A stretch of DNA of 64,000 nucleotides from positions 13,764,001 through 13,828,000 of the forward strand of contig CAIIXF020000001.1 of NCBI GenBank assembly GCA_903813345.2. Reading direction: 5' to 3'. Under the pieces are notes generated by a model. That model saw only the letters and a list, made by a program, of their open reading frames with translations, had not been told where the DNA came from and did no database searches. The stretch's first letter is position 1, and every line of letters starts with the position of its first letter. Source of the DNA: Owenia fusiformis. Lineage: Eukaryota. The position numbers and the translations under genes were made by a program. Positions 7,368 through 34,682 of this stretch are shown here, piece after piece.

Positions 7368-7814
7368 TCACTTTTCATTAGGATTAAATATATGTGGAAT
7401 AGAGAAGAATACGGCAAGTGTTGAGGCCAACGTAAACGTAAGAAACACCCATAGGCACATTCTGTCAATAACCATTGCTGCAAATTTCCAATCGTTGATT
7501 TCCTCACCACTTTCATTATCCTCTTTGATTTTGTTAGTTATGGATCTTAATTCCCTGAGGATCATTTTTAGTTCTGTTTTAGTGATAAAGTTATCGTCCT
7601 GTTGCATGGATGGCATATCCCCGAAACTTGATGGTGTGTACGGATAGTAATCATCATCATCTTTAATGTTCATTATCAGGCTTTTAGAGGGCTGTAGTTG
7701 TTTTTCTAAGTCTCTCATAGCTGATTTTCTCTTGAGACTGCGTCTTGAAATGTCTCTGCCTGGGCGATGCAAGCGGACGACCCATGCACCCCACTCGCAG
7801 ATCAACGTTTTCAC
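7368..7814 (-). CDS. Gene A exon 10 (M3-M4 loop, M4, stop)
   Basis: Acceptor ttttaag|[11 protein letters not shown]...[16 protein letters not shown]...FNPNEK*. Confidence 0.93.
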   Translation of the reverse strand: MKTLICEWGAWVVRLHRPGRDISRRSLKRKSAMRDLEKQLQPSKSLIMNIKDDDDYYPYTPSSFGDMPSMQQDDNFITKTELKMILRELRSITNKIKEDNESGEEINDWKFAAMVIDRMCLWVFLTFTLASTLAVFFSIPHIFNPNEK

Positions 7815-10800
7815 CTTAAAATGAATACCGTAGTTGTTATCAATTGAATAGTCTTCTCAGTGGTCTAGGGGTGAAATAAACTTAGTATTTTCAGGTTTTG
7901 TGAACAATGGAACTTAGACTTGAAATATACAGGGTGTTCCAAAAATATGTATCAGGGAATCGGAATCAACTGACATAGGGATAAAGGAGAAGATGACCTA
8001 ATGGTTTTTAACATTGTGTCAATGGGGATTTAGCATATAAGCTTTTTCAGAAAACTTAAAAATCCTTGGAAATTGAATACAGGAAAATAACTGTGCATAA
8101 AGTTGTTTTAACAGAAAAATTCCATACAGAATTCAAATATGTCATCAAATAGAAGAAAATGATAGTCTTTGATGACAAAAATGCATATCTCATAAATGAA
8201 AAGCGAGACTTGAACGAGATTTCAAAGTTATAGTAAAGCCTATTCACCTCAATGTTCCACGGAAGAACTATTCGGAGGAGGTTCAAAATTGCTTTGAACA
8301 TCCATGACATCAAGTTATTGATCACATCAATGGATGCAGTAATCATGTAAATGAATGAAAATGGGTATTTTCCCCCCAAATGAATCGAAATATTTACAGG
8401 GAAAAAACAATTCGAAGAAATGGTATCACGTACCCAGCTTGGCATTATGTACATGTCTGGATTCCTGTGGTGGAAGTTGAGAACTAACACAGTCAGGCAA
8501 ACTGATAAGGTACACATTACCATGATGCAGGCAAAATATACAGCTGCAAAAACATTAGAATCAGCTTGAAATTAAACACGAATATGATTGAATTTAAGTT
8601 TCACAAATGAGTAAAAAAACAAATTACTATTCATTCAGATACTCTGTTACTCAAAAATATTATATAGCGTTATAGGACTTCAGACAAAATGATGGTTTCC
8701 GCAAATGATATACCATTGCATGGAGAAGGTCGTCATTTCCTTTGTTATAACGAACATCTGAGTAAAAAATAAATTGTGTCTGTGAGGTTATCTTAGCATT
8801 TTAAGAAAAATAACTTGATCCCCATAGCGGACAAATGTTCTGATCTCACCCTGTAAATATATTCCCCATCAAACATACCTAATATCGGGACTGATCCTGA
8901 GGTGGCGGGTATCATTTCAGCCACAATCATCATAAACACAGATAAGGCTAGCAGAATTGTCACACCTACATGGTAAAAATATATTGTGATCAGTACTAGT
9001 AGTATTATACAATAAGATATATTTCAATTTACGTGTGTTTTTTAAAAAAGGTACAAAACGTTACAAAAAATAATCGAAAATACATTTCTTACAAGCCCCT
9101 TTTAATCAAGGTGTTAATGTTCTTACCCAATCCGATTTTTTCTCCTGCATCGGGAGGAAGCACAAAGAGAAGAATGGAAATCGAAGAGATCATGAAACAC
9201 GGGATGATCAAATTGAAGCCATAGTACAGTGTCTTGCGTCTTATGTGTAAAGTGAAGGTAACATCAGGGTATTCTTCAATACAGCACTCATATTTAAAAA
9301 TGTTTCTTTCTGCTGGGTGAGCTGAAAAACAAAAAAAATATAACTAGAAATATTAATGATAGTAAAAAATAATCCAGGGAAAATAATACTGCAGGGAAAA
9401 ATAAGTTGAATTTTTTCATTTGTCCGGAGTTTGTTTCCTTCCTTTGCGATTCAATGCTCCATTTACCAATTCTATGGTTTCTTCATTAATTTTTGGATTT
9501 TATTTTCCCATTTGGCAACCGTACTCGTATATCAATACATACTTACAATGACTTATAACTGAATTTATATAAATAGATGATACCTAACACAGCCCATTCT
9601 CCACTCTCTTGGTAGGTTGACATATCAATCTCGTTCCATTTCAGGGTTAGATTAATTTTTCCTGCATCATAAGTCCATGAACCAAATTTCATTATACACT
9701 TTTGTTCATCAAATGGAAACCTATAAACATCACGACTTGTTTTAAATTATAGTTGATTTTCTACAATTGATTAGTAAGAAACAACACAAAATGTCCCTTC
9801 TCATCCCTTTGCTATAACTTTTGTTCTGCTGGTTTTTCCTTTTGAAACTTTCACTGACAATCAGCATATTACCATTAAAGTTATTGTTACTATGGTAACC
9901 GTTGTTAAAGATCAACTCACCATTTAATGTTTATTGAACAGGATGATATGTAGAGTCCAATTGGTACCCAGGTAAGAAGGCCACTAGAATACACAACAAT
10001 GTTTGTCGAAAACTTCGAGTCAATATCTTCGTCAGCACTGAAAAGCATAGAGTGTTTTTTGAAAAATAATTCAACTCATTTTATAGAGAGAAATGAAGGT
10101 TTATATGAGCGATGAATATGATAATGCTAAGTTTAGCAGCAATGGATAAAATGGAAACTTTCAAATTTTGTCAATGACGGTTTATCCGAATATCTACTGA
10201 AAATCGTATCATACAATCGCTTCCACTAAGAGTTTAATCATATAAATAGACAAAATGGAACTAAATTCCTGGAGTAAACACATTGTATTACCTATTATAC
10301 ATTAATATATCTGGTGTCCAGATCTTTTTAGCTGGAAGACGAATACTTGTAATATTTCCATAATCCTCTGGATTCCACTTCAGCTTATAATCGTGCCATG
10401 CCTGGATATATATTTCTATACATTTATATTTTAATGTCTATTCAAATGAAAAAAAGCAATAAAGTAGAATCATCCAGACACAATTACAGTATGGGACTTA
10501 GTAATAGCATAGTATAGTGCAACGCAGTGTTGTTTAATGTTGTGTTTTATTGTGTAGTGTGGTGTAGTGTAGTGTAGTGTAGTGCTGTGCTGTGAAGTAA
10601 AGTATATTATGTTATGGTATGATATGGTATGGTATAGTTTAATATTATTTTTATATAAAAATATACATAAGTATGTACATATGTATAAAAGCCTTTAAGA
10701 AGAAATAAAATATAGCTGATGAATGTAGATATATATTGATAATAATATCTAAATTGATTATTCAATTACTTGAAATATACTTACATAGTCTAGCCATACA

Positions 10801-12647
10801 TTAGTGTTTAATACTTCATTCTTTTCATCCTGTAAAGTTCAATCAATACAAAGAAATACATATCGAAATTACTATTTGATTTCCGAAATTATTACACGGT
10901 TTGTGAAATGAGAGGATGACTAAAATTTATACAAATTTAGAGCTACTTAAATAATTCAGATAAAACTACAAGGTAGACAAATATCCTTGTTTCATTTTGC
11001 TATAATTTTCTTCACAATTCATGAATTTCAATAAAATTGTTTTGCGGATGATGCAAACTTGAATCATCGTGACTAAACTCAAAAATGATTCCTGCACCTT
11101 CATTAAAAGTAATCGCCAAATAAAAATATGGACGTCTTTTGGCTCGCCCCTTTTATAGAAAGTGTTATTGATTAGCACACATTGTAGATATACTCCTCAA
11201 AAAAAGTTAAGGACCAGTATTTTTCCTCATAGGTTTACATGTTAAACCCTATGTATCTTTAAACTCTATTCTCTAAGCCCGAAACGAAAGAAAAACTAAT
11301 AATGTAAATGAATTTGTACCTTGACTCTATTCTCTATATTTCAGAAAATTTTCAATTTAATCTCTCTATTACAATAGGTCAAAAATTGATGTCAAGGAAC
11401 CCATGTTAACCAATGTGAAATGGTGGGTTGGGGGCAAATCAGATTTTTGGATATGTTTTCGGTAAAACATTTATCAAAAATAATTTCTGAGTAGAGAATT
11501 GAATTTGCTAACTTGTCTACAACAAAAAATTGATTTGTTTCTCCAGGTTTTACAAAGTTATTAGTCTCAAATAGTCAAAATCATTTCTCATTAAGCCTCT
11601 CATTGAAATAACACAGGGGGTAAAAAAAAACTTGAAAAAACTGGTCCTTAACTTTTTTTAGGAGTATATGTTAAGTCTGAAATACTACGCATGCTGTAAA
11701 GGATGGCACTAAAACATAACACACAAACCAATCTGTATAAAGAATATTTCAGGACATCCATTCACTATGGGCCTGGAATGGGGTCCAAATGCACCACATA
11801 TACTACCCAAATTAGGCTATTTCTGGTAGAGGTTATTTCTGTATTTTTATTTTAAACAAGAAGTGGAATACCCCAGAATTGATGATTAAAAGATGAACCT
11901 CTCGACAGAATTCATATCTAGGAGATAATTCAATTCTATGGAAATTCCCCATCTATTTCAAACAATAGTAGTGAGAAAGCACAAAAAGAGCAACACCTGA
12001 AAAAACTCCACAATCCCTATATAAGTCACAAAGAAAAATCTAAGAATAGTAGTATATGACCTTTGGATGTAGAACCAGTTGGCTTTGAACGAGTACACAG
12101 GACAATAGCTAGTTTTTGCCAAGGGGGGGGGGTTAAAAAACTCCAGGGGGTCCACATTTGACAATTTTGGCCCAAACCACTTGAAAAATGTGCCTGTTAC
12201 ACCAAATAGTACAACGCTTGAGAGCTTGTCGTCTACTTATCAAAGGTGTACTGAAATGTTCTGTTACAATTTGGGCTTTTAGCAATTACTGAGTGGTAAT
12301 AGGGTTATAGTTTGTAATATTTGGGTATCAGTAGCTGCAATAAGTAAAGAAAGATACACACCAACGCGGAATCATTTCATCTCCTACCATATGTTTAGCA
12401 CTCTTAATATGTAAATATAGGCAGAAAACCATGCATACAATGCAAAAAGACACTCGTTTTGCAATATCCTGTTGTGAGCAAACCATACCACTTACAATTC
12501 CAATGATTTGTTGCAACGATATCCCAAATACGACTTGAAGTGAATCAGTCTCCGTAGCAACAGGCCGCCCAAGCATATTGTAATTACGCTTGTCCTTGTT
12601 AAATATTTCATCTATGAGTCTTTCCTCGTGTGGACCCTGCACGGATT
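7368..12647 (-). CDS. CHRNA7-like: Gene A: alpha7-like nAChR alpha subunit, exons 2-10 (signal-peptide exon not resolved)
   Basis: Nine exons with AG/GT ends join in frame: 12647-12496, 10829-10785, 10401-10292, 10037-9921, 9720-9584, 9321-9127, 8965-8879, 8543-8434, 7814-7368. They encode a Cys-loop ([15 protein letters not shown]), loop B WTYD, loop [12 protein letters not shown] before M2 and an M4 [10 protein letters not shown]. Exon sizes 45/110/195/87/110 equal those of CHRNA7. Confidence 0.95.
8434..8543 (-). CDS. Gene A exon 9 (M3)
   Basis: 110 nt; cag|CT...TGG|gtacgt; [37 protein letters not shown]. Confidence 0.95.
8879..8965 (-). CDS. Gene A exon 8 (M2)
   Basis: 87 nt; tag|GT...G|gtatg; [29 protein letters not shown]. 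Confidence 0.95.
9127..9321 (-). CDS. Gene A exon 7 (loop C, M1)
   Basis: 195 nt; [65 protein letters not shown]. Confidence 0.95.
9584..9720 (-). CDS. Gene A exon 6 (Cys-loop 3' half, loop B)
   Basis: 137 nt; [45 protein letters not shown]. Confidence 0.95.
9921..10037 (-). CDS. Gene A exon 5
   Basis: 117 nt; [39 protein letters not shown]. Confidence 0.95.
10292..10401 (-). CDS. Gene A exon 4 (single copy, 4b-type)
   Basis: 110 nt; [37 protein letters not shown]. Confidence 0.95.
10550..10636. repeat. Degenerate pentamer microsatellites (gtgta)n / (tatgg)n in gene A intron 3
   Basis: Seen directly. Confidence 0.8.
10785..10829 (-). CDS. Gene A exon 3 (loop D)
   Basis: 45 nt; cag|GAT...TAT|gtaagt; [15 protein letters not shown]. 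Confidence 0.95.
11191..11666. mobile_element. Tc1/mariner-type MITE in gene A intron 2
   Basis: TIRs tactcctcaaaaaaagttaaggaccagt / actggtccttaactttttttaggagta, each flanked by TA; interior resembles 59760-60030. Confidence 0.75.
12496..12647 (-). CDS. Gene A exon 2 (single copy, 2a-type)
   Basis: 152 nt; tag|AA TCC...ATT|gtaagt; [50 protein letters not shown]. Confidence 0.95.
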
Positions 12648-16795: not shown

Positions 16796-17278
16796 TCATT
16801 TTTCATTTGGATTGAATATATGTGGAATACAAAAGAATACGCCAAGTGTGGAGGCCACTGTATATGCAAGGAACACCCATAGGCACATTCTATCTATTAC
16901 CATTGCTGCAAATTTCCAATCGTTGATTTCTTCACCATTTTCATTATCCTCTTTGATTTTATTTGTTATGAATCTCAATTCTCTGAGAATCATTTTGAGT
17001 TCTGTTTTAGTCATATTAAAATTATCGTCAGGTTGGATATTATGCATTCCTGCGTTTCGCATGTTTGGCATTCCCCCGTTAGTTGCTGGGAAGGGGGATG
17101 GGTATGGATAGTAATCATCATCATCCCTAATGTTTGTGATGAGACTTTTAGACGGCTGTAATTGTTTTTCTAGATCTCTCATATCTGATTTTCTGATAAG
17201 AGTGCGTCTTGAAATATCTCTGCCTGGCCGATGCATGCGAACAATCCATGCACCCCACTCGCAGATCAAAGTTCTCAC
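16796..17278 (-). CDS. Gene B exon 10 (M3-M4 loop, M4, stop)
   Basis: tttcag|[11 protein letters not shown]...[16 protein letters not shown]...FNPNEK*; 12 aa longer than the gene A exon. Confidence 0.95.
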   Translation of the reverse strand: MRTLICEWGAWIVRMHRPGRDISRRTLIRKSDMRDLEKQLQPSKSLITNIRDDDDYYPYPSPFPATNGGMPNMRNAGMHNIQPDDNFNMTKTELKMILRELRFITNKIKEDNENGEEINDWKFAAMVIDRMCLWVFLAYTVASTLGVFFCIPHIFNPNEK

Positions 17279-20200
17279 CTGAAAATATATACTTGCAATA
17301 GTCATTGCACGCAAATAAACCATAATGTAATACAATGGAAGACATGCCCTGTAAATATGAACATATCGCAGAACGTGTGTATGAGAATATTTCCTAAAAA
17401 ATCTAATAATTTGACTTATATTCTAAACTTTAAAACGTTACTTGAAATACGATGCAATTTTCAATCTCCTTCCAATCATCGATGAGTCACTTTGGACCAA
17501 TCAAAAAATAGAACCACACTTTCCTATATAAAATTTTTGTGAAAATACAAAATATCAAATGACGTACCCAGTTTGGCATTCTGTACATGTCTGGATTCCT
17601 GTGGTGGAAGTTGAGAACTAACACAGTCAGACAAACTGATAAGGTACACATTACCATGATGCAGGCAAAATATACAGCTGCAAAAACATGACAATAGAAA
17701 TTAAAACAATTTAAAAGTAAATTATACCATTATACTATATTGTGTAATTGACAAGCTCTATTTTCCATCTATTTGATCATTACCTTAATATATTAGATTA
17801 TATGATGTACAGTAACAAAATAAATATTATCCCTTAAAGCCATCTATTATTTATGACAAACGAGACCACACATGATGTAACAATATCTACAAATACGAAA
17901 CATGCACCTACACTACACAACACATTGAACGTAAAAATATGACAAAAATCTAAATGATAAAAACGGAAGATATCATGATGATATGAGTCAAACGAATGTT
18001 CTTGCGTCTCTCTGTCTCCATGTTATTTGGTTTTACAGTGACATTCGTTTAATTAATGCACATACAGAGTGGTGAAACCCTTTATTTTGACCAGGGTGGT
18101 CGAATTCTGTATATTTCCTCATACCTATGTCACATTAGGGAACACTCCCTGATATTTTAGACATTTGTACATCATTCATGCTACCATATTTCATAACAAT
18201 CAGACTGATAGACTGATAGATGTTACGTCACTTTAAACAACATGTAAGGCATGGCCATCATCGCGCTTTAGGCAAACCTGCACATTTCGCCAAAAGTTGT
18301 CATTGACCCGACTGCATTCTTCAGAAGACATGGTCTGAATGACACATATGATTTCCCCTTTGAGGTCTGCAACTGTCATGAGGTCATTCTCGCACACTCT
18401 TTGTCTTTGGCGAAGATGAATCAGGTACGGACATTTTGGACGATGTGTGCAGGTTTGCGTACGATAGTGGCCACTTGAGCATGTTGTTAAAAGTGTTGTA
18501 ACATTGTGACTATCAATCAGATGGTCATGAGACCCAGTAGAGTACATAGGTAGACTATTGTATGCACATTTCTTGGTTTCAACGGCTTGATATATTGTTA
18601 AAGCAGTTACATGTATGAATGCAGGGCTACGAGTTTCAAAATACATTCGATTACATCCCCCTTTTTGGGACACTTTGGATGGGTTTTGTAAATCTTCGTG
18701 CACAGAATGGTATTCCTACTAGTTCTAATTCTAAATCTAAGCGATTTCTACATGTGTTAGCGCCATCTGTTTGATTGTATAGTATTATACATACTAAACC
18801 TATAGTAATATTGCTGAAACATTAATTGTCAAGGCACTAAACAATTAGTCTACGTATATTCACTTTGATCGTGCACACGGTTTACCTAATATTGGAACAG
18901 CCCCTGATGTTGCAGGTACCATTTCTGCCACTATCATCATGAACACGGAAAGAGCAAGAAGAATTGTTACACCTGAAAATGTTATACCAAAAAATGGTGA
19001 AAAAGAAAATATGGGTTGCCTTTGTGGGACGAAACAGAATTATAATCAAAAAGACAATAAGGCAGTGGGATTCCCAGTGCAGTATGTATATGCACATATA
19101 TGCATCTTAGACCTTAGAAACGCTAGTTTATTACATTTTTCTGCATTCCCCGGCCTAAGATGCACATTATGACCTTCATAATCACATGTAAAAATCTAAT
19201 ATTTCAAGCATTTGGTGAATAGATTTCAGGTGAAAATAAAATACACCTGCCAACAATAGAAAACATTAAAGAGTCAAAACTAAAGATAATTTACTTAAAG
19301 AGAAAAGTAAGAAAACTACACCTACATGTTTATAGAACAATATAAAAATATGAAAGTTATAATTTTGTGTTTGTTAGAAACAATAGCATGTTTCATTTAC
19401 AACACAATAAATATACATTACAACACCAATCAGTGAGCATCCCCAAAAAATCCTGTTCTGTGCAATTTAAATATTGTATGCTAAATAAATAGTTGTACAT
19501 TGGGTGGTTTTAACACAAGATTTTTTGAATGTGCAAACTGATCCCCTTAACCCTATCCTAAAATAATAACAATGAAATAAAATACACAATCGACCAGTCA
19601 TACCTAATATTGGGACTGAGCCCGAAGTGGCGGGTACCATTTCAGCCACAATCATCATAAAAACAGCCAAAGCTAGCAGTATTGTCACGCCTATATGGCA
19701 AAATATTATGATCTTAAATCTGGCACAAGAAATGAATCAGCTATAGGTTTTGTCATGATGGCATTGGTTGGTATTATTGCAATGTAAGTAATATATAATA
19801 TGAGGATTTCAATTATTGATGACTACAACTGAAAAACATTACACTCTTAATTTTTTATCACAGTTTGATGGTCCCATTAAAGGAGGAAAGGAAGTTTACG
19901 GACGAGAGTCGAACTTGGGTACGAAATGCTGTTTAATAATTATTTTAATAAGTACTTCATGCTATACATTTTTATAAAGTGCCCAAGAGCTTTGCATTGA
20001 TTACGTGAATATTTCTCGATTTCAAGGTTAACTGGCATGCATTTTGAAAAAATCCAAAAAGTTTTGCATCTTATATTTGATCATGTTATTTTCTCAGGTA
20101 TTAAATTTTAGCTTTTAACGAATACACATTTGAAATAAATAATTGATCTTGACTCTTACATTTTACACTTGTTGGTAATATTTGCTACGACTTAATAGGC

Positions 20201-23200
20201 ATACCATATGGTTGAAATTAAATTTCAGCCCCAGAAAGTTCAGCCCCATATAAAATGTTCTCAGAAACCTTGCATTAACATTTCAACACTTTTCTAATTT
20301 CGTTTGGGCAACTATCTTATGCTTTAGTATAATATTTGAATTGTTTTATCATTAAATCTTCAACATAACATTTGTCGAATCTTTGGTGTAACTGAAATGA
20401 TCTATGGAATTGTTGTTCTGGATTGTGCCAATTGTTTATTTGCCAATGCTTATGAAATGTGAACACTGTAACTGCATATTCTCCAAAAGGGAATTCTGGT
20501 TTAAACTGACGGCATTGATATTAAATACTCAGTCACCATTTAAGCACAAAATGAAAATACAATCGAGTTTGAGAAAGTGTTAGAAATATCAATGTAACGT
20601 AGGTGATAACGTATTTTGCAATTTACTAGAACATAAAATCACACGAACTTTACCTAATGAGACTTTTTCTCCTGCATCGGGAGGAAGCACAAAGACTAGG
20701 ATGGCAAGAGATGAAATCATGAAACACGGGATGATCAAATTGAAGCCATAATAAAGTGTCTTGCGTCGTATGTGTAAAGTGAAAGTAATATCAATGTATT
20801 CTTCTATACAGCACTCATATTTGAAAATATTTCTTTCTGCTGGGCGACCTGAAAAACAATAATTATTGGTTAGAATTGTACATACAGTAATAGTGCCTAC
20901 ATTTTTTCTATGCAATATTGTTGATATTGCATGTATTAATAAATTAATTTGGTACAGCCCCTGTGGTATCTATAACACCATTCAAAAATGTAAACTTTAT
21001 AAATAAAACTCGATTTTAACAGTTAGTTCAGTCATCTCGCGTATTGTCGTCTTAAACATGTTGAATTTGAGATTAGAATCCAAACACCGTCAGCAGACCT
21101 GCATCGTCAAAGTAAAAACTATGATACTTTAACTATTTTTTTGTAAATCTGGACACATATGATATTACCTATTAATGCCCATTCTCCACTTTCCTGGTAG
21201 GTTGAAATGTCTACCTCTTGCCACTTCAGTGTAAGATTGACATTTGCTCCATCATAAGTCCATGAACCAAATTTCATTATACACTTTTGTTCATCAAACG
21301 GAAACCTGTAACAAATAGTTTAATTCAAATTGATTAACAATAGTACAGCAAAAAATAACACAAATAATAAATCATTATATTTTAATTCTTGAATGTCACG
21401 TTTTCTAAAAGAAATACGTACCATTTAATGTCTATTGAACATGATGATATGTAGAGACCAATTGGCACCCAACTGAGTACCCCAGTAGAGTACACAACTA
21501 TGTTCGTTGAAAATTTTGAATCGATGTCTTCATCGGCACTGAAACAGAGTGTTTAAAAAATGTTAATACAAATTGAATTAAAAGTCCTTTAAAGAAGCAC
21601 ATTTCAAATGACAAGTTTGTTTATTACAATTAACTGATCAAATATTTCATTCTGTTCAGGTTCATCTTTCAATGATTCTAGCAAGGTGTATGTACCAAAG
21701 CCTTAATGGCCATAGGAACAAATTAAACCTTGAAAATCATTGAAAGTGCAATATTTGTTTTTATTCACTGATAATAACTTTTCTTTGAGATTATCAAACT
21801 ATGATCAAACTATATATACTATCTAATCGTACTGAATATAATATTTCATGAAATATAAAAGAAGGATCATTTAAAGCTAATATATAAAAATATTAATCTG
21901 AACAAAGCTTGCTATTAGGTAAACTGTTATGCCTTTAATGCATGTAATAATGATAAATATGATAATCTGAACAGCCAATAATTTATTATCTAGTAGTGAT
22001 TTTATATATATTAAACTCCACGACAAAGCTTTGTATGGAATGACATAATCATATAATCACTAATTCACATACCATATAATTTATGGCATTGTGTTCTGGC
22101 GCATATTCCCATAAGATTGATATGTGTCTATTAGTGATTTATCAATATGAAATACCTGGATATTTCGTTTATATTATACTTTTAAAGGGCACATGCAATA
22201 TACCTTTCAAAAACAGAAAAACAAGTGAAGAAAATATCAAAATAGAATTTCAAAATGATCGTATAACACAGATGAGGCAAAGTTGGATACAATAGATGGA
22301 TTGTGATAGTTTTAATGATGTTCAATGATCGCAGGAGATGAGTGCACAAGCTACTCCATATTATATGATCATAATAGGCAACGTTATACCTTGCAAGGAA
22401 GGATGGAAGATATATTATCATATCAAAATATCAATGTTAGTTTGAGGACTAAAACCACCGTCTGTTACTATCGAAGAAGGGGGTTATAATGTCCAAGCGG
22501 CAACCTAGCCATACTTACCGTTTGCAAAAGAGTCAGTGATAAAAGTAAACTAAAGTCCTTCTAATAAGCATAAATCGAGGCATTGCAATCATATTTAGGC
22601 CTATAGCGAGGACAGCTTAAATGATTTCAATGCAACTGTTAGCTCTTGTATTACCCAGAAGATTACCTATTATACATAAGAATATCTGGCGTCCAAATGT
22701 ATTTTGCAGGAAGTCTAATACTCGTGATATTACCGTAGTCTGCAGGATTCCAATGCAGCTTATAATCAACCCATTCCTATGTACAAGGGAAGTAAATAAG
22801 TTCAACTTGACGAAATTGTTGAACTGTTTATTGTGGTTAGTCTTGAAGCATCTGCAATGAAATTGTTGATTTTCTTCTGGCCTAGATATTATATCTGGTA
22901 GGTCTGATATGTCTACGGGGAACTATGGGCCCGGGACAATGGGACTTTCAAATAACGGCCGTTCGGTATTTTCCAAATAATCATTGGAGAATTCAAAGTC
23001 TTGGGGAACCCAGCTGTGTAAAAGAACTATACTTATTATGGATGTGCATGTGCATGTCTCCATTGTCCACATGGTCGTATCTTAAGATATAACAGCATAA
23101 CAATAAATAGTAACTACACATACCCCCTCTTATTGCAAATTATAACCACAAGTTACGACCAAAACGAGGACACAGGGAGTTATATTTTTTGAAATACGTC

Positions 23201-26200
23201 ATGATTTTCCACACAAATCATGCCATTTCTCCATCTATTGTAAAAATAGATGAACGCAACACAACACAACTGCAGCCCAACAGATTTAATGTTTTGTTTA
23301 AATAGTGTTTACAAAACCTTCCATATTTGATTTTAATGACTGCTCAATGACTATAATATTTAAAGGTTATGTCACTATTGTTGCATATATGCCCGAGGGT
23401 TTCAGTGATATATGGCCCGACCTTGGGAGGGACATTGATCACTGAGAACCGAGGGCATATGTGCAACTATAGTGACATAAACGATTTATAACATACCTAT
23501 GATGATATAGTCTGGTCAGAACGTACCGTTTTCTTATCTTATTGACTAGCAATGGTTCGGAAATGATGATTTATTCCCATGTTTGTATCTTACGAATGTA
23601 CGATCAATTTGACCTAGGCCTAATGTATGACGTAGTCCCAGCGCTTGACCAACCAGAAAGTTAGCGGGCGCGGGCTTTTCAAAAGTTATATTGGCCCGCT
23701 GTCTTGTGAACAGTTTACACTATACGTCATCATAGGTATGTTATAATAAATTATATTACATATAATAAACTATTAAATTTTGTATTTGGGAGTTGAATTA
23801 TGTTGCATTCATCATCAACAACTGAACATCTAGTAGAACAAAAATCAAGAATAAATAATTCTGTGCAAAAGGTAATGTGACAACGGGCTGTGGCTACACC
23901 AAAGAATAGTAAGCATGCTGGAACGTCAGAAAATAACAAGAGTAAACAAACAAAATGCTCTTAAACAACTTTCATTTGACTTTTACGACTCATTTCTGGT
24001 AGATCAATGCAGTGTTGTTTTTATTGATGGCTAAATAAGAGCAGTTTGTCAAAAAACGAGAATTCCTGGAGTAAACACGGTGTATTACCTATTATACATT
24101 AATATATCTGGTGTCCAGATTTTTTTAGCTGGAAGACGAATACTTGTAATATTTCCATAATCCTCTGGATTCCACTTAAGCTTATAATCAGTCCATTCCT
24201 GCATAGAAACAAATTTGTGAAATTATGTTAAAATTATCAAAGTGTAGACAATTAAAAAAGCGTAATTGGTCATTCATAAAGCAAAACCACCTTCATGCTC
24301 AACTCGTTATTGCTCAAGTATGATCAGGTGAAGCAAAATTTTGCAGATATAAATAAAAAGGTTAGTGATAATATAAATTTATAATTTCGATACCCATACA
24401 CATTCATAAAGGAACATATATGTAAACGTAACAACAAATTAACTGAAACAAAAATACATCAATTAAAAATGCCACGACAAATGTATGTTCTTCTCTAGAA
24501 ACTCAGTGACAACTACAATAAAAACAACAGCAATCATGCTATATTTATCAGCTGCAGTGCCATTGATCATTTGATTATGTTTACCTATTATACATCAATA
24601 TATCTGGGGTCCATATTTTTTTGGCTGGAAGACGAATACTGGTAACGTTACCATATTCGCTTGGGTCCCATGAGAGTTTGTGGTCACTCCATTTCTGGTT
24701 GGCATTAATTAATGACACATGATGAGAAATTGTTTTTAGTAATGCTATATTTGTCGGAATGAATTCTAAATATTCAAAGTTTAAATATTACATCTTATCA
24801 TAATATTACATTTATATAGAAAATTGGCATTATGTTAAGAAATATACTCACATAGTTTAACCATACGTTAGTATGTAACATCTCGTTCTTTTCGTCCTGT
24901 AAAATCAAGAAATAAAATGTTATATGTGCTATTTAATTCCTCACTTTCTTATTTCCTTGTCACGTGTAGTCAGAGAGTGTGGAATATGACAGTAAATGAT
25001 AATAATGAAGAATATTTATCTTCAATGTCATAATTATTAAAACAGCAATTACTTGATTCATTTACAACTTATATATTGTAATAAAGAATTTCTAAACTAA
25101 CATTTTACTCATATTCAAATAATACAAATAGTTTAGATTAAGAATACTGTGTAAATAAGCACACACACACTTTCTACAGTTACGAAGCATCGCATTAACA
25201 CACGTGCTGAAGACTATGGCACAAAAAACAGTACAAACAAAGAGATACATTTATGATACATTTAGCTCGTGGCATTCCCTATACAGTATACAGAATAGGG
25301 ACCAGGTATGACGTCTAAATGCATCATATATTCCACTCATATTATTGTGGTTATTTTTGGTCAATTAATGATGATAAATAATAAATTCAAAAATAAATAA
25401 ATAATTTGATTAATAAATAATAAATTACGAAAATGATAATAAAAGGTTTGAATGATAAAGCCGATTGTAGGTTCCATATAAATCGTATGGCTAATGTTAA
25501 TCCCATTGGAAATATCTACTAAGTACTAAAGGTAGAATTTACTATTCCTGTTGAGTAAAAATCAAAGTTTGCATCAAATAGTATTGTTTCATACATTATC
25601 TAGTTTATCTAATGTCTACTGAAGTGTTATAAAAGAAATGTAACCTGATACATGGTTATTTCGTCTACAACATGTACAAGTAGTCCAGATAGGAAATAGG
25701 TTATGGAATAATATCAAAATAGTTTTCTACATAATTCAATATCTACTAAAATGAGAGCAAATGTGATTGTTATTATCTAAAGAAAGAGTATCCCACAAAG
25801 GAAATAGGTTATGGAATAATATCAAAATAGTTTTCTACATAATTCAATATCTACTAAAATGAGAGAAAATGTGATTGTTATTATTTATACTAAGTATATC
25901 CCACAAAGGAAATAGGTTATGGAATAATATCAAAATAGTTTTCCACATAATTCAAAATCTACTAAAATGAGAGAAAATGTGATTGTTATTATTGTTATTA
26001 TTTATACTAAGAGCATCCCACAAAGGAAATAATGGAATAATATCAAAATAGTTTTCTACATAATTCAATATCTACTAAAATTAGAGAAAATGTGATTGTT
26101 ATTATTTATACTCAGAGTATCCCACAAAGGAAATAGGTTATGAAATTATATTAAAATAGTTTTCTACATTATTCAATATCTACTAAAATGAGAGCAAGTG

Positions 26201-27087
26201 TGATTGCTATTAATTATACTAAAAGTATCCCACAAAAATAGTTTTCTACATCATTCAATTTTTTTACTAAAATGAGATTAAATGTGATTGTTATTATTTA
26301 TACTAAGTGTATCCCACAAAGAAAATAAGTTATGGAATAATATCAAAATAGTTTTCTACATTATTCAATTTCTACTAAGAGTATTCCGAAAAATGGATTA
26401 TGCCATGGGGGAGTTTGGTGTACATCTACAATGGACTACACTAAAGAATTGTGGTTTAATTTCTCTGTAGTTTTGGGACAGGGTTCCATTAACTTACAAC
26501 ATCAATGATCTGTTGCAAAGATAGCCCATATTTAACTTCAAGCGTGTCCGTCTCTTGGGCAACGGGTCGAGCTAAGGATTGATAATTCCTGCCCTCGGGA
26601 CTAAATATGTCATTTATAAGCCTTTCTTCATGTGGACCTTGCTTTGACTCTGTTAAATAAATGCAAATCAAACAAAATAACTAATATCATAACGACATGT
26701 AAGCTTTCTCTGTACTTTTATATACCTGAAATAAAAGAAAATGGCGAAACAATAAACAAAAATATACATTCAGAGCTGGCAACAAGCAAACCAAGCTTCA
26801 CACCAACGCCATACCATCTCACCTCCTTTTATCTTGATATTGCCCATATAGCGTTTAGGGAAGGTCATGCATATATAGCATTGGTGTGATATACATTCAT
26901 TTTGCAATGTCCTGTTTAAGCACCACATCACTTACAACTCCAATAATTTGTTGCAACGATATTCCAAACTCTACTTCTAGTGATTCACTTTCGTTGGCCA
27001 CAGGCCGCGCAAGATTATTGTAATTGCGCTTTTCTTTGTGGAATATTTCATCTATGAGTCTTTCTTCGTGTGGGCCCTGTTCTGACT
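16796..27087 (-). CDS. CHRNA7-like: Gene B: alpha7-like nAChR alpha subunit with duplicated alternative exons 2a/2b, 4a/4b/4c, 8a/8b
   Basis: Constitutive exons 24896-24852, 21538-21422, 21305-21169, 20848-20654, 17677-17568, 17278-16796 plus seven alternative exons. Any one-per-cluster choice gives an open alpha-subunit frame with Cys-loop, vicinal CC and four TM segments. Confidence 0.95.
17568..17677 (-). CDS. Gene B exon 9 (M3)
   Basis: 110 nt; [37 protein letters not shown]. Confidence 0.95.
18060..18700 (-). mobile_element. Tc1/mariner-family transposon remnant in the intron between exon 8b and exon 9
   Basis: ORF end [55 protein letters not shown] resembles the C-terminus of Tc1/mariner transposases; a TA-CAG terminus-like site lies at ~18063; boundaries approximate. 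Confidence 0.55.
18886..18972 (-). CDS. Gene B alternative exon 8b (M2)
   Basis: 87 nt; ttttcag|GT...G|gtaaac; [29 protein letters not shown]. Confidence 0.9.
19604..19690 (-). CDS. Gene B alternative exon 8a (M2)
   Basis: 87 nt; atag|GC...G|gtatga; [29 protein letters not shown]. Confidence 0.9.
20654..20848 (-). CDS. Gene B exon 7 (loop C, M1)
   Basis: 195 nt; [65 protein letters not shown]. Confidence 0.95.
21169..21305 (-). CDS. Gene B exon 6
   Basis: 137 nt; [45 protein letters not shown]. Confidence 0.95.
21422..21538 (-). CDS. Gene B exon 5
   Basis: 117 nt; [39 protein letters not shown]. Confidence 0.95.
22667..22776 (-). CDS. Gene B alternative exon 4c
   Basis: 110 nt; catag|GAA...AG|gtaatc; [37 protein letters not shown]. 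Confidence 0.88.
23365..23747. mobile_element. MITE-like element with a hairpin (23365-23481) and a 20-bp inverted repeat, between exons 4b and 4c
   Basis: ttatgtcactat..ttgcatatatgccc / gggcatatgtgcaa.tatagtgacataa; ttataacatacctatgatga (23487) vs tcatcataggtatgttataa (23728). Similar hairpins at ~12730-12800 and ~62335-62395. Confidence 0.65.
24089..24198 (-). CDS. Gene B alternative exon 4b
   Basis: 110 nt; tgcag|GAA...AG|gtaata; [37 protein letters not shown]. Confidence 0.92.
24585..24694 (-). CDS. Gene B alternative exon 4a
   Basis: 110 nt; accag|AAA...AG|gtaaac (weak pyrimidine tract); [37 protein letters not shown]. Confidence 0.88.
24852..24896 (-). CDS. Gene B exon 3 (loop D)
   Basis: 45 nt; cag|GAC...TAT|gtgagt; [15 protein letters not shown]. 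Confidence 0.95.
25692..26391. repeat. Tandem repeat, ~108-bp unit, ~6.5 copies, in the intron between exon 2b and exon 3
   Basis: ggaaataggttatggaataatatcaaaatagttttctacataattcaatatctactaaaatgagag... recurs at ~25692, 25800, 25908, 26025, 26129 and 26321. Confidence 0.95.
26498..26649 (-). CDS. Gene B alternative exon 2b
   Basis: 152 nt; taacag|AG TCA...GTT|gtaagt; [50 protein letters not shown]. Confidence 0.9.
26936..27087 (-). CDS. Gene B alternative exon 2a
   Basis: 152 nt; tttatag|AG TCA...GTT|gtaagt; [50 protein letters not shown]. Confidence 0.92.
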
Positions 27088-28352
27088 CTATAAACAGTAT
27101 AGAATAATTGTCTTACAACAACACATATTTGTTATATTGATATATGTCTCGTTTGAGTAGTATAATTTTGTTCTATTTCTTAACCAACAAATAAGTGTAA
27201 CCTCAACATTGTTGAAATTGATCATTTTTTGGTACATGCTAATATAGAACTAAAAACTAGAATGTCTGTGTCGCTAGGCATTCCAACAATGGGTAATGGA
27301 TGAACCACTCCGGAGAGAGCTTCAGGGTTATATAATTTGATGCAAACTGGCATGCTAAATAGCAAATATGTAAGTACAGTAACATAAGCATAATTAAGAA
27401 AAATAGATGGGAATAGGGATACATAATCAAATCCTAATTATTAATTTGTTTCCTGAGGCTAGAGTACATTTCAACTTTTTTGACGAATCCTTAGATTGAA
27501 AGCACCACTCTCAAAGTATCACTTGTATATACTAAAATTCATAAAACTAAGTAGTCATAGACTTTATACGACATCACTTCAAATTATTCATTCACTCCTT
27601 TCCGAAATACTCCCAAAATAATGAATACATACAGGGTGTAATAAATATATGTATTATGTAAATGCAACAAGGTTTGTCTTGTTTTACAAATATTTAAATC
27701 AATAACTTTTGCTGAAAATAACAGATACTGGGTCACTCTTTAAACAATTAATAAATTACTAGTACCTTAATATTCTACAATCTACGAATGTATTAACAGA
27801 CCGAGAAATACGCCAGACAAAATTTTAAACATGTTTGATAGAAACAGCAGTATATAGAGGGCATTGTATATACACCACGTATATGTTGTGAAATTTAAAA
27901 CTAATTATGTCGTATATTATATCCTATATTTTCTAACCTTGGTCCAAGGGTATTTCAATATTTCCATACTGAGCTGCGACAGTAGCGAAGCCCTTTCTTG
28001 AAGGATGAGTTTTGGCATAATATTTGAGACTTCGAATTTGGTTTACTAGTACTAGTTTATTAATACTAGTTTGTAGAAATATTAATAAAATAACAAATAG
28101 TGTAATATAGATCATATCAAGATTCAAAATACAATTGGCTAGAGTGTAAGAGAACGTGTGCAGAGTAAACTATGCAACTTTACTATCGTTTTACAGTTTA
28201 CAAGTGTACAAGTACAAGTATCTGCACATCGGTATATACACTGAACGTGAAAATAGCTGTCTAAAACTATAAACCAACGAAATCTCAAGTTGAAAAACTA
28301 TTCCGGGAATTATAAAGTTATTGCTCTGCGAAACTTTTTGCAAGTGTATTTA

Positions 28353-29201
28353 CACCCTATGCAGACAGAGCCTGTGGGAAATATTGGGTGCGGAGCAAAT
28401 AAACGGAGGGTGCGGAGCTAACGGTCATTTTTGAATTTAAATTTGGGATATTTCTGAAACTAAGCCGTTTTGGGACTTCAAATATACCAAGATATGTGTA
28501 TTTGACACCAAATATCAATACAATTGTGAAAATAGTAGCGCAATTCATTCTATAGCGACGCAGTGTGCCTTAAACCTTTCCCAGACCTATATATTTTGAA
28601 ATTATCCTTTTAATACTGAGTCCCCAGCATTCATAAAAAATGGTGTTCAAGGTGCACTATCTATACAAATTATTTTTGCATCTTGGAAGCCAGGCAGTAT
28701 CTGTGTGATTTTATAAAAATTCGGAAATGTTCTTCAGATATGAGCCCCTCTAAATATTGGGTGCGGAGCAGCTCCATAAACGTAGCTCCGCACCCAATAT
28801 TTAGAGGGGCTCATATCTGAAGAACATTTCCGAATTTTTATAAAATCACACAGATACTGCCTGGCTTCCAAGATGCAAAAATAATTTGCATGGGTAGTGT
28901 ATCTTGAACACCATTTTTTATGAATGCTGGGGACGCAGTATTAAAAGGATAGTCTCAAAATATATAGGTCTGGGAAATGTTTAAGGCATACTGCGTCGCT
29001 ATAAAATGAATTGCACTACTATTTTCACAATTTTATTGATATTTGGTGTCAAATACACATATCTTGGTATATTTGAAGTCCCAAAACGGCTTAGTTTCAG
29101 AAATATCCCAATTTTAAATTAAAAAATGACCGTTAGCTCCGCACCCTCCGCTCATTTGCGCCGCAGCCAATATTTCCCACAGGCTCTGTCTGCATAGGGT
29201 G
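28353..29201. repeat. Near-perfect 849-bp palindrome (foldback element)
   Basis: caccctatgcagacagagcctgtgggaaatattgg ... ccaatatttcccacaggctctgtctgcatagggtg; arms ~415 bp with a short spacer near 28778. Confidence 0.95.
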
Positions 29202-31264
29202 ATTTAGAAATGTTTGAAAATGCCATGATAAAAAATGATAAGGAACCACACGTCATTCTGCTAAGAGGGACGACCAGGGATTGTTAGTTCAAAGTCACGC
29301 AAGTCAAAAGATGTTTTAGTAGAACAGAATATTCCTCTATTACAAAAATATTCTATATCATAATATAATACAATATAATCCATAATTATACTTCAAAGAT
29401 GTTCATAGTTTTATTATTGCAAATATTTACTATTATATATTAGTATATGAAAAATTGCGTTTTTGGTTAATATTGACTGATAAATCAACCTTTGATCAAA
29501 ATCAAGTCAAAAATTTAGAATATCAACTCGTAAAACCGAGATTCTATTATTCATATGATATATGATATTTTATCATATATTAAAATACCGAAGGCGCAAA
29601 GGAGTAGGCTCTTAGGCAAAGGACTATATGAAATTCAATGTCATATACTGCCATAAGTCATAGAATCGAGGTCTTTGTTACGATTCTAATTTGATAAACA
29701 ACTTCAAGGCACTTTCATTTTCAGGTTATCATAACGTCCATTTATCATATTAGAATACAAAAGCTACTTGTCAGTCCTATTTGGGAACTTGGCAAAGCGT
29801 TGAATTCAAAACACTCTTACAGGTGAGTTCTACAAAAGTAATCAGTATTTAGTATATTTTGTTAATTTACATGTTAGGCCATTGTGGACTACACTGTCAT
29901 TGAATTCGTTATATATGTGTATCTTTATGAGACAATAAGTTATAATGATTCTAAAGGAGATAGCTTACGAACTTACATTTAGTTTCGTATCTGGCCTTTG
30001 TATGTATCGCACAAGTCGAGGTTGAGAAAAATTCTGATCTAAAGGCAGTGCTACTGAATCAATGAGTCGATGAACTAACTATAGTTTCTATTCTATCGGA
30101 TTAGTCAGAGTGTAGATATTCCTTTTTGAATATAGCCGGGTCATCAGCGGGGTGCGTCCATAAATCCTGTACAAGCTACGGTGAGCAAGCCGAGCAAACT
30201 TTGAGCAATAAGCTATAGTGAAAATATGCATTGAATCGAAGTAGCCTCTCATCATTTGAGATAACGTTACTGACATCTATTGACGATATATGATATTACG
30301 ATATTGTAAGTAATAAAAATTTAAAATACATGCATGATACATAATTAGAAATGAATCCAGTATTAGAAGCCTAGATATTCATTTAAGACTTTCAGTTCAA
30401 AATATTACTTTAGAAAAAAACAAAAAAGGGGGACATTCGAGATTTGAGAGATTTGGTGGCATCTTAAACAACTACAAAACTAGTGATATGCTAACTCAGC
30501 ATGTACTACGTTGTCGTTATATTACGGCTCCACTCCCCGGCTCCATTATGGTATCTTTAACCTGCACTGGCCGTGATCAAATTATTAGTAGATATAAGAG
30601 TAATTTGTTCAATGGAGACATGGGAGTATTTGTCTCAGCACAAATTATTTTACACCATAAATCAACCAGATTGAGAAGGTAATTGAATACAACATGTATA
30701 AATCGAGAAACTGTATAACTACTGAAACGCGGGGTATTTCTTGAAAGATGTTCTAAACATATCAAAGAGATGATAGGTCAGAATGTTTAATCCTTTTTGT
30801 TTAAAACAACTTATCTGAAATAAAGTTATTAAAGCGAAAAACTGTATTGTGAAAAAGATTTGCTGAAATATGTTATTTTATTGACCCAATATCCAAAGCA
30901 GAGCAACGTAGTCATCTTTGATAATTGATATATCCTTGCTCATAGAACATCGTAGGCTTTTAACCATTTTCATTTTTATTCTGAACTGAATGCTAATTTA
31001 CAATTATAAGCCTAATTAAAAAGCCTGAACTTGTATGGATTGGATGACTTAATTAATTGCAGTTGGCAGGAAGAAAATTTGTGTTTCGATCGGTCAATGG
31101 TCTTCTACATCAGCTTGAGATCAGGGTGACAGTTAATATAGATCTGGTCGACCTGTTTTACCGAGCTAAATAATAACCAAGTACTAATAACCAAAGGACA
31201 TAATTTAGAATTGGTCTTGCTTCACCATGTGATCTTTCAATTGTCTGCCTTCAACATTATGAGC

Positions 31265-31960: not shown

Positions 31961-33734
31961 GGACATGCTTCAGTAAATGATTATTTAAATCAAATTTAGT
32001 TCTATTTCGAACCTCCAGATCCAGTTTCTGTTAACTAAATATAGCAGTTGACTAAAGCGCATCGTTCATCATCACCTCATCAGGGTAAATAAACATCTAT
32101 TAGTATCACGCTTACCTTATGATAGTCTAGGCTACTCTTATTTTGAACTAACATATATTTGTAACACCATTTTGTTATTCCAGTGGAGATCGAGGTGAGA
32201 CCTTGACACTTGGAATTTGGAGGGAACATCACCTTGTATGAGGTTATAGACCCTATCGAATGGCAAGATTAATCTCTGGGGGATTAATGTTACGAAAATC
32301 CCATACTTAGCTCATGATTGAGGTCGGTCAATAAAAAAAACTATAATGCATATTAGATTTTTCCACATAATGAAAATACAGATTGTGAGAGTCTTAGATT
32401 TGTTTGTAATCTAGCTATAATCTGTATGTGAATGTAGTCAGTTGGAGCATCCAGTCTTCGTCATTGAGCAATTAAAAAAGCAAGAAATAAGTTCAGAATA
32501 TCTGATGCATCCTTCAAGATCGGGCTTCACTGCTATGACAGTATGGAAAGAATTGAAAACCCCTTGGACCAAGGATATGACGACTTGTAAATGTAGATGT
32601 AAAATTGTTAATGTAAAAGCACTCTCGTGATTTATCTTATCCGCATAGCACATCTGACAATAAGGGGCACTATCTGAATGAAGATGCATAAGGGACCCAT
32701 TCCAAACATTATCAACTTTTATTAAGTGAAGTTCATAACAATAATTCCATTGAAGTAGATGGGAAAGATTGTTTTAGGGTACTCTTTAGTCTAAGTTATA
32801 GCTCCGGTGAAAATGTCCCGATGGTCCATTTACAAGTTTCGAATTATCCATCACTTCTGGTATTGACTGTTATGGTTTTGTCATAAAATGATCATTTTAT
32901 CGTCCTAACGTTGTAGGGGATTAAATAATTAATGACTGCTTGAGAATACTTTTCTACAATGGAACAGTAACTTCAATTTCCAAAGCAGATGTTGGGATCT
33001 ATTGGTTAGTCGTAAATGACAAAACAATCCACCGGAAATCATCAGACGCAGTACAACAGTTGTTCAAGTTATTCTTCCATATATAAGTGTTTTATAAATA
33101 ATGTATCTAGAAGGTTTCTGACCTGACTAAGGAGATTATTAAAAAGCCGTAACATCTGACATTAAATCAGCCCATTGCCGAAAATATGCTCAACTGCCCG
33201 ATGAGATATTCAATATGGCGTTTCACCAACTGTTGTGTTATTGGGTTCTATCTACCGGAACAGCTTGTTAAACAAATCAGATATTATTATACCTCAGGAA
33301 TCACCATGTTATCTGTTGTAGCAGATCTTCTTTACATTTTGTGTACATTTTCTAGGGTAATTACACAAAGGCGTTTTTTGAGCAAGCATTCTTTACATTT
33401 AATAGACCATTTACCAGCAAATGTTAAGTTTTTGCGGTGATTGTCTCAAGGATATGGCAAACAATATTTTTGTTTCAAACTTAACAGTATGATGTATATA
33501 TGTATATTTGAAATATTCAAAATGCCAGTCAGAATTCAAGATGGCCACTTCAAAGTTGAGTCATCTAACAATGTGGAGAATCCAGTCGGTTTAAATAGAT
33601 CATGGTGACAGGGGATATTAGAAAGAATACAAAACGGTTTCCAAAGCTAATCAACTCTAGAATAGGACAATTCGAAGATCTGGAAGATCAAAATCATGAT
33701 GCCGTGGAAAACGGTACATGACAAGAATGCTAAA

Positions 33735-33902
33735 TACAATGAAACCTGTCTCAGTGAACACCCTCTCTCTAGTGAACACCTGTGTCCAGTGGGCACCCAT
33801 TCTCAGCACATACTCCACTGACCTCTGTATAAAATCACCTCTCTATAGCGAAGACCTAACTACAATGAACTTATTTCTGCGGCTCCATAGATGTTCATTG
33901 TA
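33735..33902. mobile_element. Short pogo/Tigger-like MITE
   Basis: Ends TA-caatgaaacctgt / atagatgttcattg-TA; similar architecture at 57883-58077. Confidence 0.5.
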
Positions 33903-34682
33903 CATAAAGGAGGAGGGAAATTAGCGCAACAGATTTTGGACAGCCATTTGTTTGATTTTGGCCTTTTCCTGGGGATTTAAACAGGTGCATATGTTAGGCG
34001 AATGCATTACCTCCAGGAAAATCACTTCTAGAGATGATAAAATAATTTCGACTTTGAGACAGGGTAGATGCGAACAACCCACCCACATGTTTTTTTAAAA
34101 TGTTTTCCTGATTTTCAACCCCTTCCATCCCTGCTTTTTTAATTAATTTTTCTTGCATCAATATGTCGTGTTTTGACGCACAGTTAATCTTTTAAAAGGG
34201 ATAAATGATTCCTTTTAGATAAAGTGGAAAACAATATTTCCCATGTTATTTTCCCATAGGGAAAAATCATTGCTTTCAGCTAAATTTGGTCACCCATAAT
34301 GGGTATCTTTAAAACCCCTCATGAAGGAATCACTTATTCCTTTGAATTGGTTAACTATGTGTCAAAACGCACCATATTGATGCAAGAAAAATTATAAAAG
34401 CAGGGATGAAAGGGGTCAAAAATTAGTAAAACATTTCAGAAAAAACATGTGGGTGGGTTGTTTGCATCGACCCTGTCTCAAAGTCGAAATTATTTTATCA
34501 TCTCTAGAAGTGATTTTCCTGGAGAAAATGAATTGGCCTAACATATGCAATTGTTTAAATCCTCAGAAAATGGCCAAAATCCAACATATGACTGGCAAAA
34601 ATCTGTTGCGCTAATTTCCCTCCTCCTTTATGTACAATGAACATCTATGGAGCCACAGAAATAAGTGCATTGTAGTTAGGTC
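33853..34682. repeat. ~830-bp imperfect palindrome (foldback element)
   Basis: gacctaactacaatg...tacataaaggaggagggaaattagcgcaacagatttt mirrored by aaaatctgttgcgctaatttccctcctcctttatgta...cattgtagttaggtc. Confidence 0.92.

Follow-up and report, generated by a model that had tools for sequence, protein, structure and literature searches.

Tandem copies of exons 2, 4 and 8 in the Owenia fusiformis (Annelida) gene for an alpha7-like nicotinic receptor, and their probable mutually exclusive use

A stretch of 64,000 nucleotides from the annelid Owenia fusiformis (contig CAIIXF020000001.1, positions 13,764,001 to 13,828,000; called the window below and numbered from its first letter) contains on its minus strand an alpha7-like nicotinic acetylcholine receptor (nAChR) alpha-subunit gene, gene B. 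Stop-to-stop frames and splice-site inspection gave 10 exon positions for this gene, and exon 2 was found in two tandem copies (152 nt), exon 4 in three (110 nt) and exon 8 in two (87 nt). Mutually exclusive use of the copies, which would yield up to 12 subunit isoforms, is in our opinion the best explanation of this arrangement, and probably the correct one; the grounds for it are the evolution of the sequence and known precedents rather than transcripts. Each gene B mRNA would accordingly carry one exon from each of the arrays 2, 4 and 8. The alpha7-like subunits form homopentamers, and alternative exons are among the few routes by which distinct receptors can arise from one gene.

Exon arrays of gene B and selection on their copies

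All exon copies are preceded by AG, followed by GT and free of in-frame stops, and when one exon is chosen per cluster the frame remains open in 12 of the 12 combinations. The sister copies of each cluster occupy identical Pfam profile positions, namely 1-40 of the ligand-binding domain (LBD) for exon 2, 56-91 of the same domain for exon 4 and 31/32-57 of the membrane region for exon 8. A tandem exon cluster consists of neighbouring homologous exons that agree in length and phase and have their own splice sites, and such exons were observed at all three positions. A tblastn search of the whole 64-kb window with a spliced gene B isoform revealed no further exon copies at E<1. A second 45-nt exon 3 was not found either: 34 open windows of 45 nt between AG and GT were scanned and the known exon alone matched. 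The copy numbers of two, three and two with equal length and phase, canonical ends and no stops, as well as the single state of exons 3, 5, 6, 7, 9 and 10, had been proposed in a first-pass annotation and are borne out by the sequence, the single exons by the window search and the exon 3 scan. The span given there for the system, 16796-27087, covers exons 2-10 but leaves out exon 1, the coding part of which lies upstream of an intron 1 of 17.7 kb. Exon 1 was placed by residues 1-25 of the public protein model P0128, which match 44765-44839 at 100% in tblastn, and the letters were then read directly; its phase 1 is compatible with the AG-start of both exon 2 copies.

The product of the gene was characterized mainly through P0128, the exons 1-7 of which correspond to gene B. 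Both Pfam domains, PF02931 (1.1e-70) and PF02932 (3.2e-52), were detected in P0128, and the translation contains the Cys-loop C-x13-C across exons 5 and 6 and the vicinal cysteine pair YECC in exon 7. The best match among solved structures was human alpha7 (E 5.7e-135, over P0128 residues 27-374). Alpha7 accounted for all of the 13 best distinct PDB sequences, with E values between 5.7e-135 and 2.8e-125; alpha3 and alpha4 came next at approx. 1e-110. The named database relatives of the gene B protein are alpha-7-like or acr-16-like, and annelid relatives from the same subclade were seen in Ridgeia and Hirudo. The assignment of the predicted product as an alpha7-like nicotinic alpha subunit, i.e. 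a Cys-loop receptor, is justified by its sequence, in agreement with the label originally given to the gene. The host had been suspected to be a non-arthropod, which is right: the closest database proteins are those of Owenia fusiformis, and parts of them match the window at 100%.

Synonymous (pS) and replacement (pN) differences were compared between the sister copies. Exons 2a and 2b are 64.5% identical in nucleotides and differ in 16 of 50 amino acids, with pS 0.86, pN 0.22 and pN/pS 0.26. In the exon 4 pairs the pN/pS values were 0.14-0.20 (4a-4b: pS 0.66, pN 0.12; 4a-4c: pS 0.91, pN 0.18; 4b-4c: pS 0.74, pN 0.10). In the case of 8a and 8b, pS was 0.76, pN 0.05 and pN/pS 0.06, and the 30 codons showed 16 synonymous and 2 amino-acid changes, exactly the count made before. 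Fisher tests on the synonymous versus non-synonymous differences between copies gave p values from 4e-6 to 7e-11. When the observed number of substitutions was scattered at random over one copy (20,000 trials per pair), amino-acid changes as few as those observed appeared in 0 of 20,000 trials in each of the five pairs. A neutral-decay model, in which one copy is used and the other decays so that pN is at least half of pS, was rejected for all five pairs (P 1.5e-9 to 6.8e-6). When gene B was compared with itself by blastn, the similarity of sister copies was confined to the exon plus 2-7 nt, and the introns were without likeness. Since the similarity stops at the exon edges, the replacement sites are conserved and the decay of one copy is rejected, the copies are judged functional. 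On these grounds all seven copies can be taken to behave as selected coding exons, with saturated synonymous sites and conserved replacement sites. Thus purifying selection on the copies, suggested in the first-pass annotation, is supported by the pN/pS values, the Fisher tests, the randomization and the rejection of the decay model. Own constraint appears weakest in the case of exon 4b, given its near-identity to exon 4 of a neighbouring paralog, gene A.

The duplicates are hardly to be regarded as an assembly artefact or as collapsed or expanded haplotypes, and nothing in favour of such an origin was found. Copies arising in this way would be near-identical, whereas the copies observed are only 64-78% identical in nucleotides (22-35% divergent) and lie among unrelated introns. 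The DNA run X1 covers all 30 bins, with a depth of 1-20 in unique sequence around the clusters, and one X1 contig of 1361 nt reaches across 8a and 8b and shows 3 differences, X1 being possibly the assembly's own sample.

Gene A lies approx. 4 kb downstream of gene B on the same strand, with a frame open over exons 2-10, and it provides a comparator for the age of the copies. Its single exons are closest to 2a (81% nt), 4b (94.5%) and 8a (87%), and the copies 2b, 4a, 4c and 8b have 65-78% nucleotide identity to every other copy. The pooled pS between genes A and B over exons 3, 5, 6, 7 and 9 was 0.41, which is below the pS of 0.66-0.91 between the sister copies. The simplest reading of these values is that the exon duplications would be older than the A/B gene duplication, and that gene A would later have lost the extra copies. 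The comparisons show apparent purifying selection on each copy over a time longer than the age of the A/B duplication. The identity between the two genes is patchy: it amounts to 95.6% for exon 9 together with its flanks (137 nt) and to 93.8% for exon 4b against gene A exon 4, intron flank included (145 nt), the other exons reaching 78-88%. Such a pattern suggests that the paralogs still exchange sequence by gene conversion, and the age reading is blurred by it. The Owenia copies have traits in common that characterize genes A and B (e.g. two additional residues in exon 2 and a form of exon 8 marked by 13 protein letters), which suggests duplication within the oweniid lineage. In an exon 4 tree of 24 sequences and 36 columns 1 of the 21 inner branches was well supported, and a duplication shared by Owenia and the nemertean Lineus was not separable at this resolution. 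No exon 1 was located for gene A, the regions upstream of A and B giving no blastn or tblastx match.

Table 1. Positions in the window of the gene B exons and of the paralogous gene A
Feature	Position	Strand	Length	Remarks
Exon 1, coding part	44764-44839	-	25 codons + 1 nt	ATG at 44839; donor GTAAGA after 44764; signal peptide
Exon 2a	26936-27087	-	152 nt	Pfam Neur_chan_LBD positions 1-40; in public model P0128
Exon 2b	26498-26649	-	152 nt	Same Neur_chan_LBD positions 1-40
Exon 3	24852-24896	-	45 nt	Single
Exon 4a	24585-24694	-	110 nt	Pfam LBD positions 56-91
Exon 4b	24089-24198	-	110 nt	LBD positions 56-91; in P0128
Exon 4c	22667-22776	-	110 nt	LBD positions 56-91
Exon 5	21422-21538	-	117 nt	Single
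Exon 6	21169-21305	-	137 nt	Single; Cys-loop spans exons 5 and 6
Exon 7	20654-20848	-	195 nt	Single; loop C YECC, M1, start of M2
Exon 8a	19604-19690	-	87 nt	Rest of M2 and M2-M3 linker; Neur_chan_memb positions 32-57
Exon 8b	18886-18972	-	87 nt	Neur_chan_memb positions 31/32-57; in public partial model P0066
Exon 9	17568-17677	-	110 nt	Single
Exon 10	16796-17278	-	483 nt	Including stop; cytoplasmic loop and M4
Gene A, exons 2-10	7368-12647	-		Tandem paralog; one copy per exon; comparator, outside the cluster system

Proposed exclusive use of the copies and its possible control

Alternative use of the copies is what we infer for gene B. For exons 2 and 4, exclusivity would be ensured among productive mRNAs because neither 152 nor 110 nt is divisible by 3. 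Double inclusion or skipping of exon 2 or 4 causes a frameshift, so that the reading frame meets its first stop 608-920 nt before the last exon junction. A premature stop far upstream of the last junction is the classic trigger of nonsense-mediated decay. Messengers with two copies of exon 2 or 4, or with none, would be expected to undergo this decay, and only the one-copy mRNAs would be productive.

The frame of exon 8 (87 nt) survives both the inclusion of 8a together with 8b and the skipping of the exon, therefore another control must act here. Steric exclusion is not suitable, because the introns between copies, 286-1312 nt, are too long for it. Control by docking sites and selector sequences, as in Dscam, is a possible way of separating 8a from 8b, but no such signal was found in gene B. 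The scans for docking and selector elements covered the Owenia window alone. Shared selector-like k-mers beside the variant exons were at chance level (0-1 observed against 0.15-1.03 expected from shuffles). The inverted repeats in 17678-20653 comprised 31 pairs, all short or AT-rich and 71-93% complementary. Whole-intron duplex folding gave long unspecific duplexes, with z values from -0.99 to +0.97 in the three pairs having complete statistics.

Since the length of exon 8 is a multiple of 3 and the frame is kept either way, products containing both 8a and 8b, or neither of them, could be formed regularly, and exon 8 would then not be strictly exclusive. Predicted models of other species have comparable structures: both or no exon 3 copies are present in models of Limulus, Tachypleus, Ornithodoros, Bradybaena and Frankliniella, and both exon 8 copies, or none, in those of Pollicipes and Lepeophtheirus. 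A silkworm form containing both exon 3 copies is described in PMC1919356. In the protein, a doubled M2 would add a membrane segment and skipping would remove the pore helix, so a working channel is not to be expected from either form, and we regard regular production of such mRNAs as quite improbable. It would in any case be compatible with mutually exclusive use at exons 2 and 4. Across the automatic models of several species, exclusivity is not absolute for in-frame exon 3 or exon 8 arrays, at the level of predicted models.

Several observations weigh against the mutually exclusive use of the copies. No mechanism separating 8a from 8b was found when inverted repeats, shared words and duplex folding were checked. 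The polypyrimidine tract of exon 4a is the weakest among the three exon 4 copies (0.56). Exon 4b with approx. 30 nt of flank is nearly identical to exon 4 of gene A; it may be a recent gene-conversion product with an unreadable constraint history of its own, and through this conversion it could also have taken over from gene A the low pN/pS that it shows against 4a and 4c. Three RNA runs of the same species, X13-X15, were read to an extent of about 6, 6 and 12%, respectively; at this sampling the depth in exon-holding bins was 0-0.23 (approx. one read), and no joint in gene B appeared at the listing threshold. The public Owenia proteins contain only 2a, 4b and 8b. Exon 2b is absent from the database proteins of 89-2000 aa, where its 7 hits, metagenome or ENA records, showed 64-68% identity, the best of them 68% and none identical. 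Among the 120 matches listed, an identity above 82% to either gene was reached by the three public models only.

The restriction of the public models to 2a, 4b and 8b, the lack of 2b in the database proteins, the missing junction reads in the sampled 6-12% of X13-X15 and the weak acceptor tract of 4a would also be accounted for if one copy per cluster were really used (e.g. 2a, 4b and 8b) and the others were unused relics of exon duplication. An unused copy, however, should gain replacement and silent changes equally, yet pN/pS is 0.06-0.26 at saturated pS, and the one-copy decay model fails in each of the five pairs (P<=6.8e-6). All seven copies keep their exact length, frame and AG/GT ends, whereas the flanking introns have lost all similarity; moreover, the divergent copies are, on the simplest reading, older than the A/B gene duplication. 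Relics of this kind are thus unlikely, and mutually exclusive use is retained as the preferred explanation.

Public gene models, RNA reads and other features of the window

P0128 (491 aa) consists of exons 1, 2a, 3, 4b, 5 and 6 and of gene B exon 7 as far as GEK, after which it continues in gene A with the last four residues of exon 7 and exons 8-10. P0001 is the same model, beginning at the end of exon 4. P0066, a partial model of 230 aa, holds the rest of gene B, i.e. the end of exon 7, 8b, 9 and 10. The switch from B to A occurs inside exon 7 (20654-20848 in gene B, 9127-9321 in gene A), in a 21-nt stretch identical in both genes. Because it lies inside an exon and within a stretch shared by the two genes, it does not correspond to a normal intron. 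Most likely it arose as an error of annotation or lift-over, a genuine recombinant haplotype of B and A being the less likely alternative. According to PMC9977687, the Owenia annotation pipeline used StringTie, Trinity/GMAP, Mikado, Augustus and PASA, followed by Liftoff. A chimera of the P0128 type could be produced by any step of it. Since RNA-seq, ab initio and lift-over evidence are mixed in this pipeline, the public models do not prove the use even of 2a, 4b and 8b. The expectation of the first-pass annotation that gene predictors would miss or mis-join the exons has come true, P0128, P0001 and P0066 being chimeric or partial and representing a single form. Expression tables and orthology sets built on these chimeric models are wrong for genes A and B.

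In the orthonectid Intoshia linei, the models P0002 and P0006 of this receptor subfamily are scrambled joins of two tandem receptor genes, and the 913-aa model starts in the middle of a gene and has an N-terminal part after a C-terminal part. This suggests that the tandem arrangement confuses the annotation of Intoshia linei as well.

Among the sequencing runs indexed as containing the window none is RNA, 12 of them having the look of low-coverage DNA. As regards the reads of X13-X15, the bin 26305-26971 with exon 2b had, for example, a depth of 0.19, the exon 7 bin one of 0.23 and the exon 9/10 bins 0.05-0.17. The trace is all of one orientation, with the first mate on the plus strand, which would fit minus-strand transcripts if the library was of the usual stranded kind. 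Nearly all placed RNA reads sit on intronic high-copy repeats. Such repeats were located at 18233-18715, 22970-23750, 28306-29700 and 33642-34975; their summed X1 contig depth ranges from hundreds to approx. 70,000, and RNA reads are present on both strands. The reads switch strand at 23402-23563, and inverted repeats were seen at 18220-18504. These intronic repeats probably belong to transposable elements that are transcribed from other places of the genome.

A tandem repeat with a 108-nt unit (approx. 5 copies, 88% match) occupies 25691-26236, in an array reaching to about 26378, in the intron between 2b and exon 3. On the plus strand, an open frame of 505 codons at 52093-53610 contains a reverse-transcriptase zinc-binding region (PF13966 at 1.6e-8) and is, judged by this domain, a retroelement remnant upstream of gene B.

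Predicted effect of the variants and comparison with known systems

Exon 2 encodes the start of the ligand-binding domain, in which the 16 residues differing between the copies are located. Exon 4 was aligned to human alpha7 precursor residues 81-116; its copies differ in 4-9 of 36 residues, mostly in the first 17, in addition to a Lys/Tyr difference just before the conserved WTPD. Exon 8, aligned to human alpha7 residues 265-293, encodes most of the pore helix M2 and the M2-M3 linker, and its copies differ in 2 of 28 residues. Exon 2 presumably contains the N-terminal helix, and exon 4 would carry the beta2-beta3 loop with loop A; the exon 8 changes presumably affect M2 position 12' and the M2-M3 linker. 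Loop D, which is varied by insect exon 3, would on the same assumption sit in the single exon 3 of Owenia gene B. Most of the variation between isoforms would lie on the outer extracellular domain, with no more than subtle changes in the channel and the gating linker.

The N-terminal helix and the beta2-beta3 loop presumably lie side by side in nicotinic receptors. One may speculate that the exon 2 and exon 4 arrays together re-model one surface of the extracellular domain, their six combinations serving as a code for assembly or for binding partners and not only as separate adjustments, within an ancient and still active protostome system of diversifying homomeric alpha7-like receptors in which the exon 8 array came from the common protostome ancestor and other arrays were added by the lineages; this proposal is tentative and rather doubtful. 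The exon 8 array is seen in arthropods, in a brachiopod and in the early-branching annelid Owenia.

Insect alpha6 is the textbook case of such exons and the target of the spinosyn insecticides. It belongs to the same alpha7-like group and has tandem copies of equal length, and the exon 8 array of Owenia stands at the homologous exon; the arthropod isoform differences fall on Owenia exon 8 residues 251-280. In Drosophila Dalpha6 the arrays are 3a/3b and 8a/8b/8c, whereas exon 3 is single in Owenia, and the Owenia arrays at exons 2 and 4 are absent from all 10 arthropod sets compared. Exons 8a and 8b of Owenia differ by 2 residues only, whereas the arthropod exon 8 copies differ at many, and the Owenia system is known from genome sequence alone. 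For insect alpha6, alternative splicing of exon 3 (two copies) and exon 8 (two or three copies) was demonstrated by RT-PCR, and the duplications are older than the insect orders, according to PMC1919356.

Same-species isoforms were surveyed in 20 database clusters, from which 21 sets were picked by hand out of multi-member clusters, full-length sequences only. The blocks differing between isoforms coincide with the Owenia exon limits in every set. Alternative or doubled exon 3 was the most frequent, in 15 sets (gastropods, two nemerteans, horseshoe crabs, tick, spider, barnacle, copepod, thrips), followed by alternative exon 8 in 8 sets (spiders, barnacles, copepods, thrips and Lingula, the last with a 1-residue difference). 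Exon 7 was alternative or doubled in 2 sets (Lineus and an Owenia paralog on another chromosome) and exon 4 alternative in 1 (the nemertean Lineus longissimus, 19 differing residues), while an alternative exon 2 was found in 0 of the 21 sets.

Lineus longissimus is a lophotrochozoan like Owenia, and its isoforms X1-X6, all of 480 aa, differ by whole-exon blocks in a combinatorial manner, one block being the counterpart of Owenia exon 4. It differs from Owenia in the place of its arrays, which occupy exons 3, 4 and 7 (two forms observed for each) and are lacking at 2 and 8, and in being known from automatic models; a full-text search found no literature description of these isoforms. Whole-exon differences in the same family also occur in gastropods and Tubulanus (exon 3), in Lingula (exon 8) and in the Owenia paralog (exon 7), as single clusters in each case. 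This second alpha7-like gene of Owenia, on another chromosome, has two tandem exon 7 copies of 65 residues, both of them present in P0014 and one in P0019. The Lineus exon 7 alternatives matching the copies of P0014 are annotated as separate isoforms.

The human CHRNA7 is a ten-exon gene with exon lengths of 45, 110, 195, 87 and 110 nt like those of Owenia gene B. It is not known to contain tandem alternative exons. In the freely available full-text literature no description of alternative exons of alpha7-like receptors outside arthropods was found, which agrees with the earlier statement that the system was not known to be described. The accessible text of a paper on the lophotrochozoan nAChR expansion (PMC6896357) does not mention isoforms, and splicing occurs there only in the reference list.

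If confirmed, the Owenia arrays would extend the alternative-exon mechanism beyond arthropods to an early-branching annelid, and would add the exon positions 2 and 4, which alter the outer extracellular domain and not loop D or the pore. Together with the nemertean, mollusc and brachiopod isoforms, they suggest that the mechanism is widespread in protostomes, with exons differing by lineage. Diversification of alpha7-like receptors by exon arrays would then be no arthropod peculiarity, and could involve the N-terminal extracellular domain. The arrays had been described at first as a different set from that of insects; this is correct for the exon 2 cluster, which has no counterpart in the 21 sets, but exon 8 is the same as in arthropods and exon 4 is alternative in Lineus as well. 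The principle is already known from insect alpha6 and the exon 8 position is shared with arthropods, and what appears to be new in Owenia, among the sets compared, is the exon 2 array and the three-copy exon 4 array.

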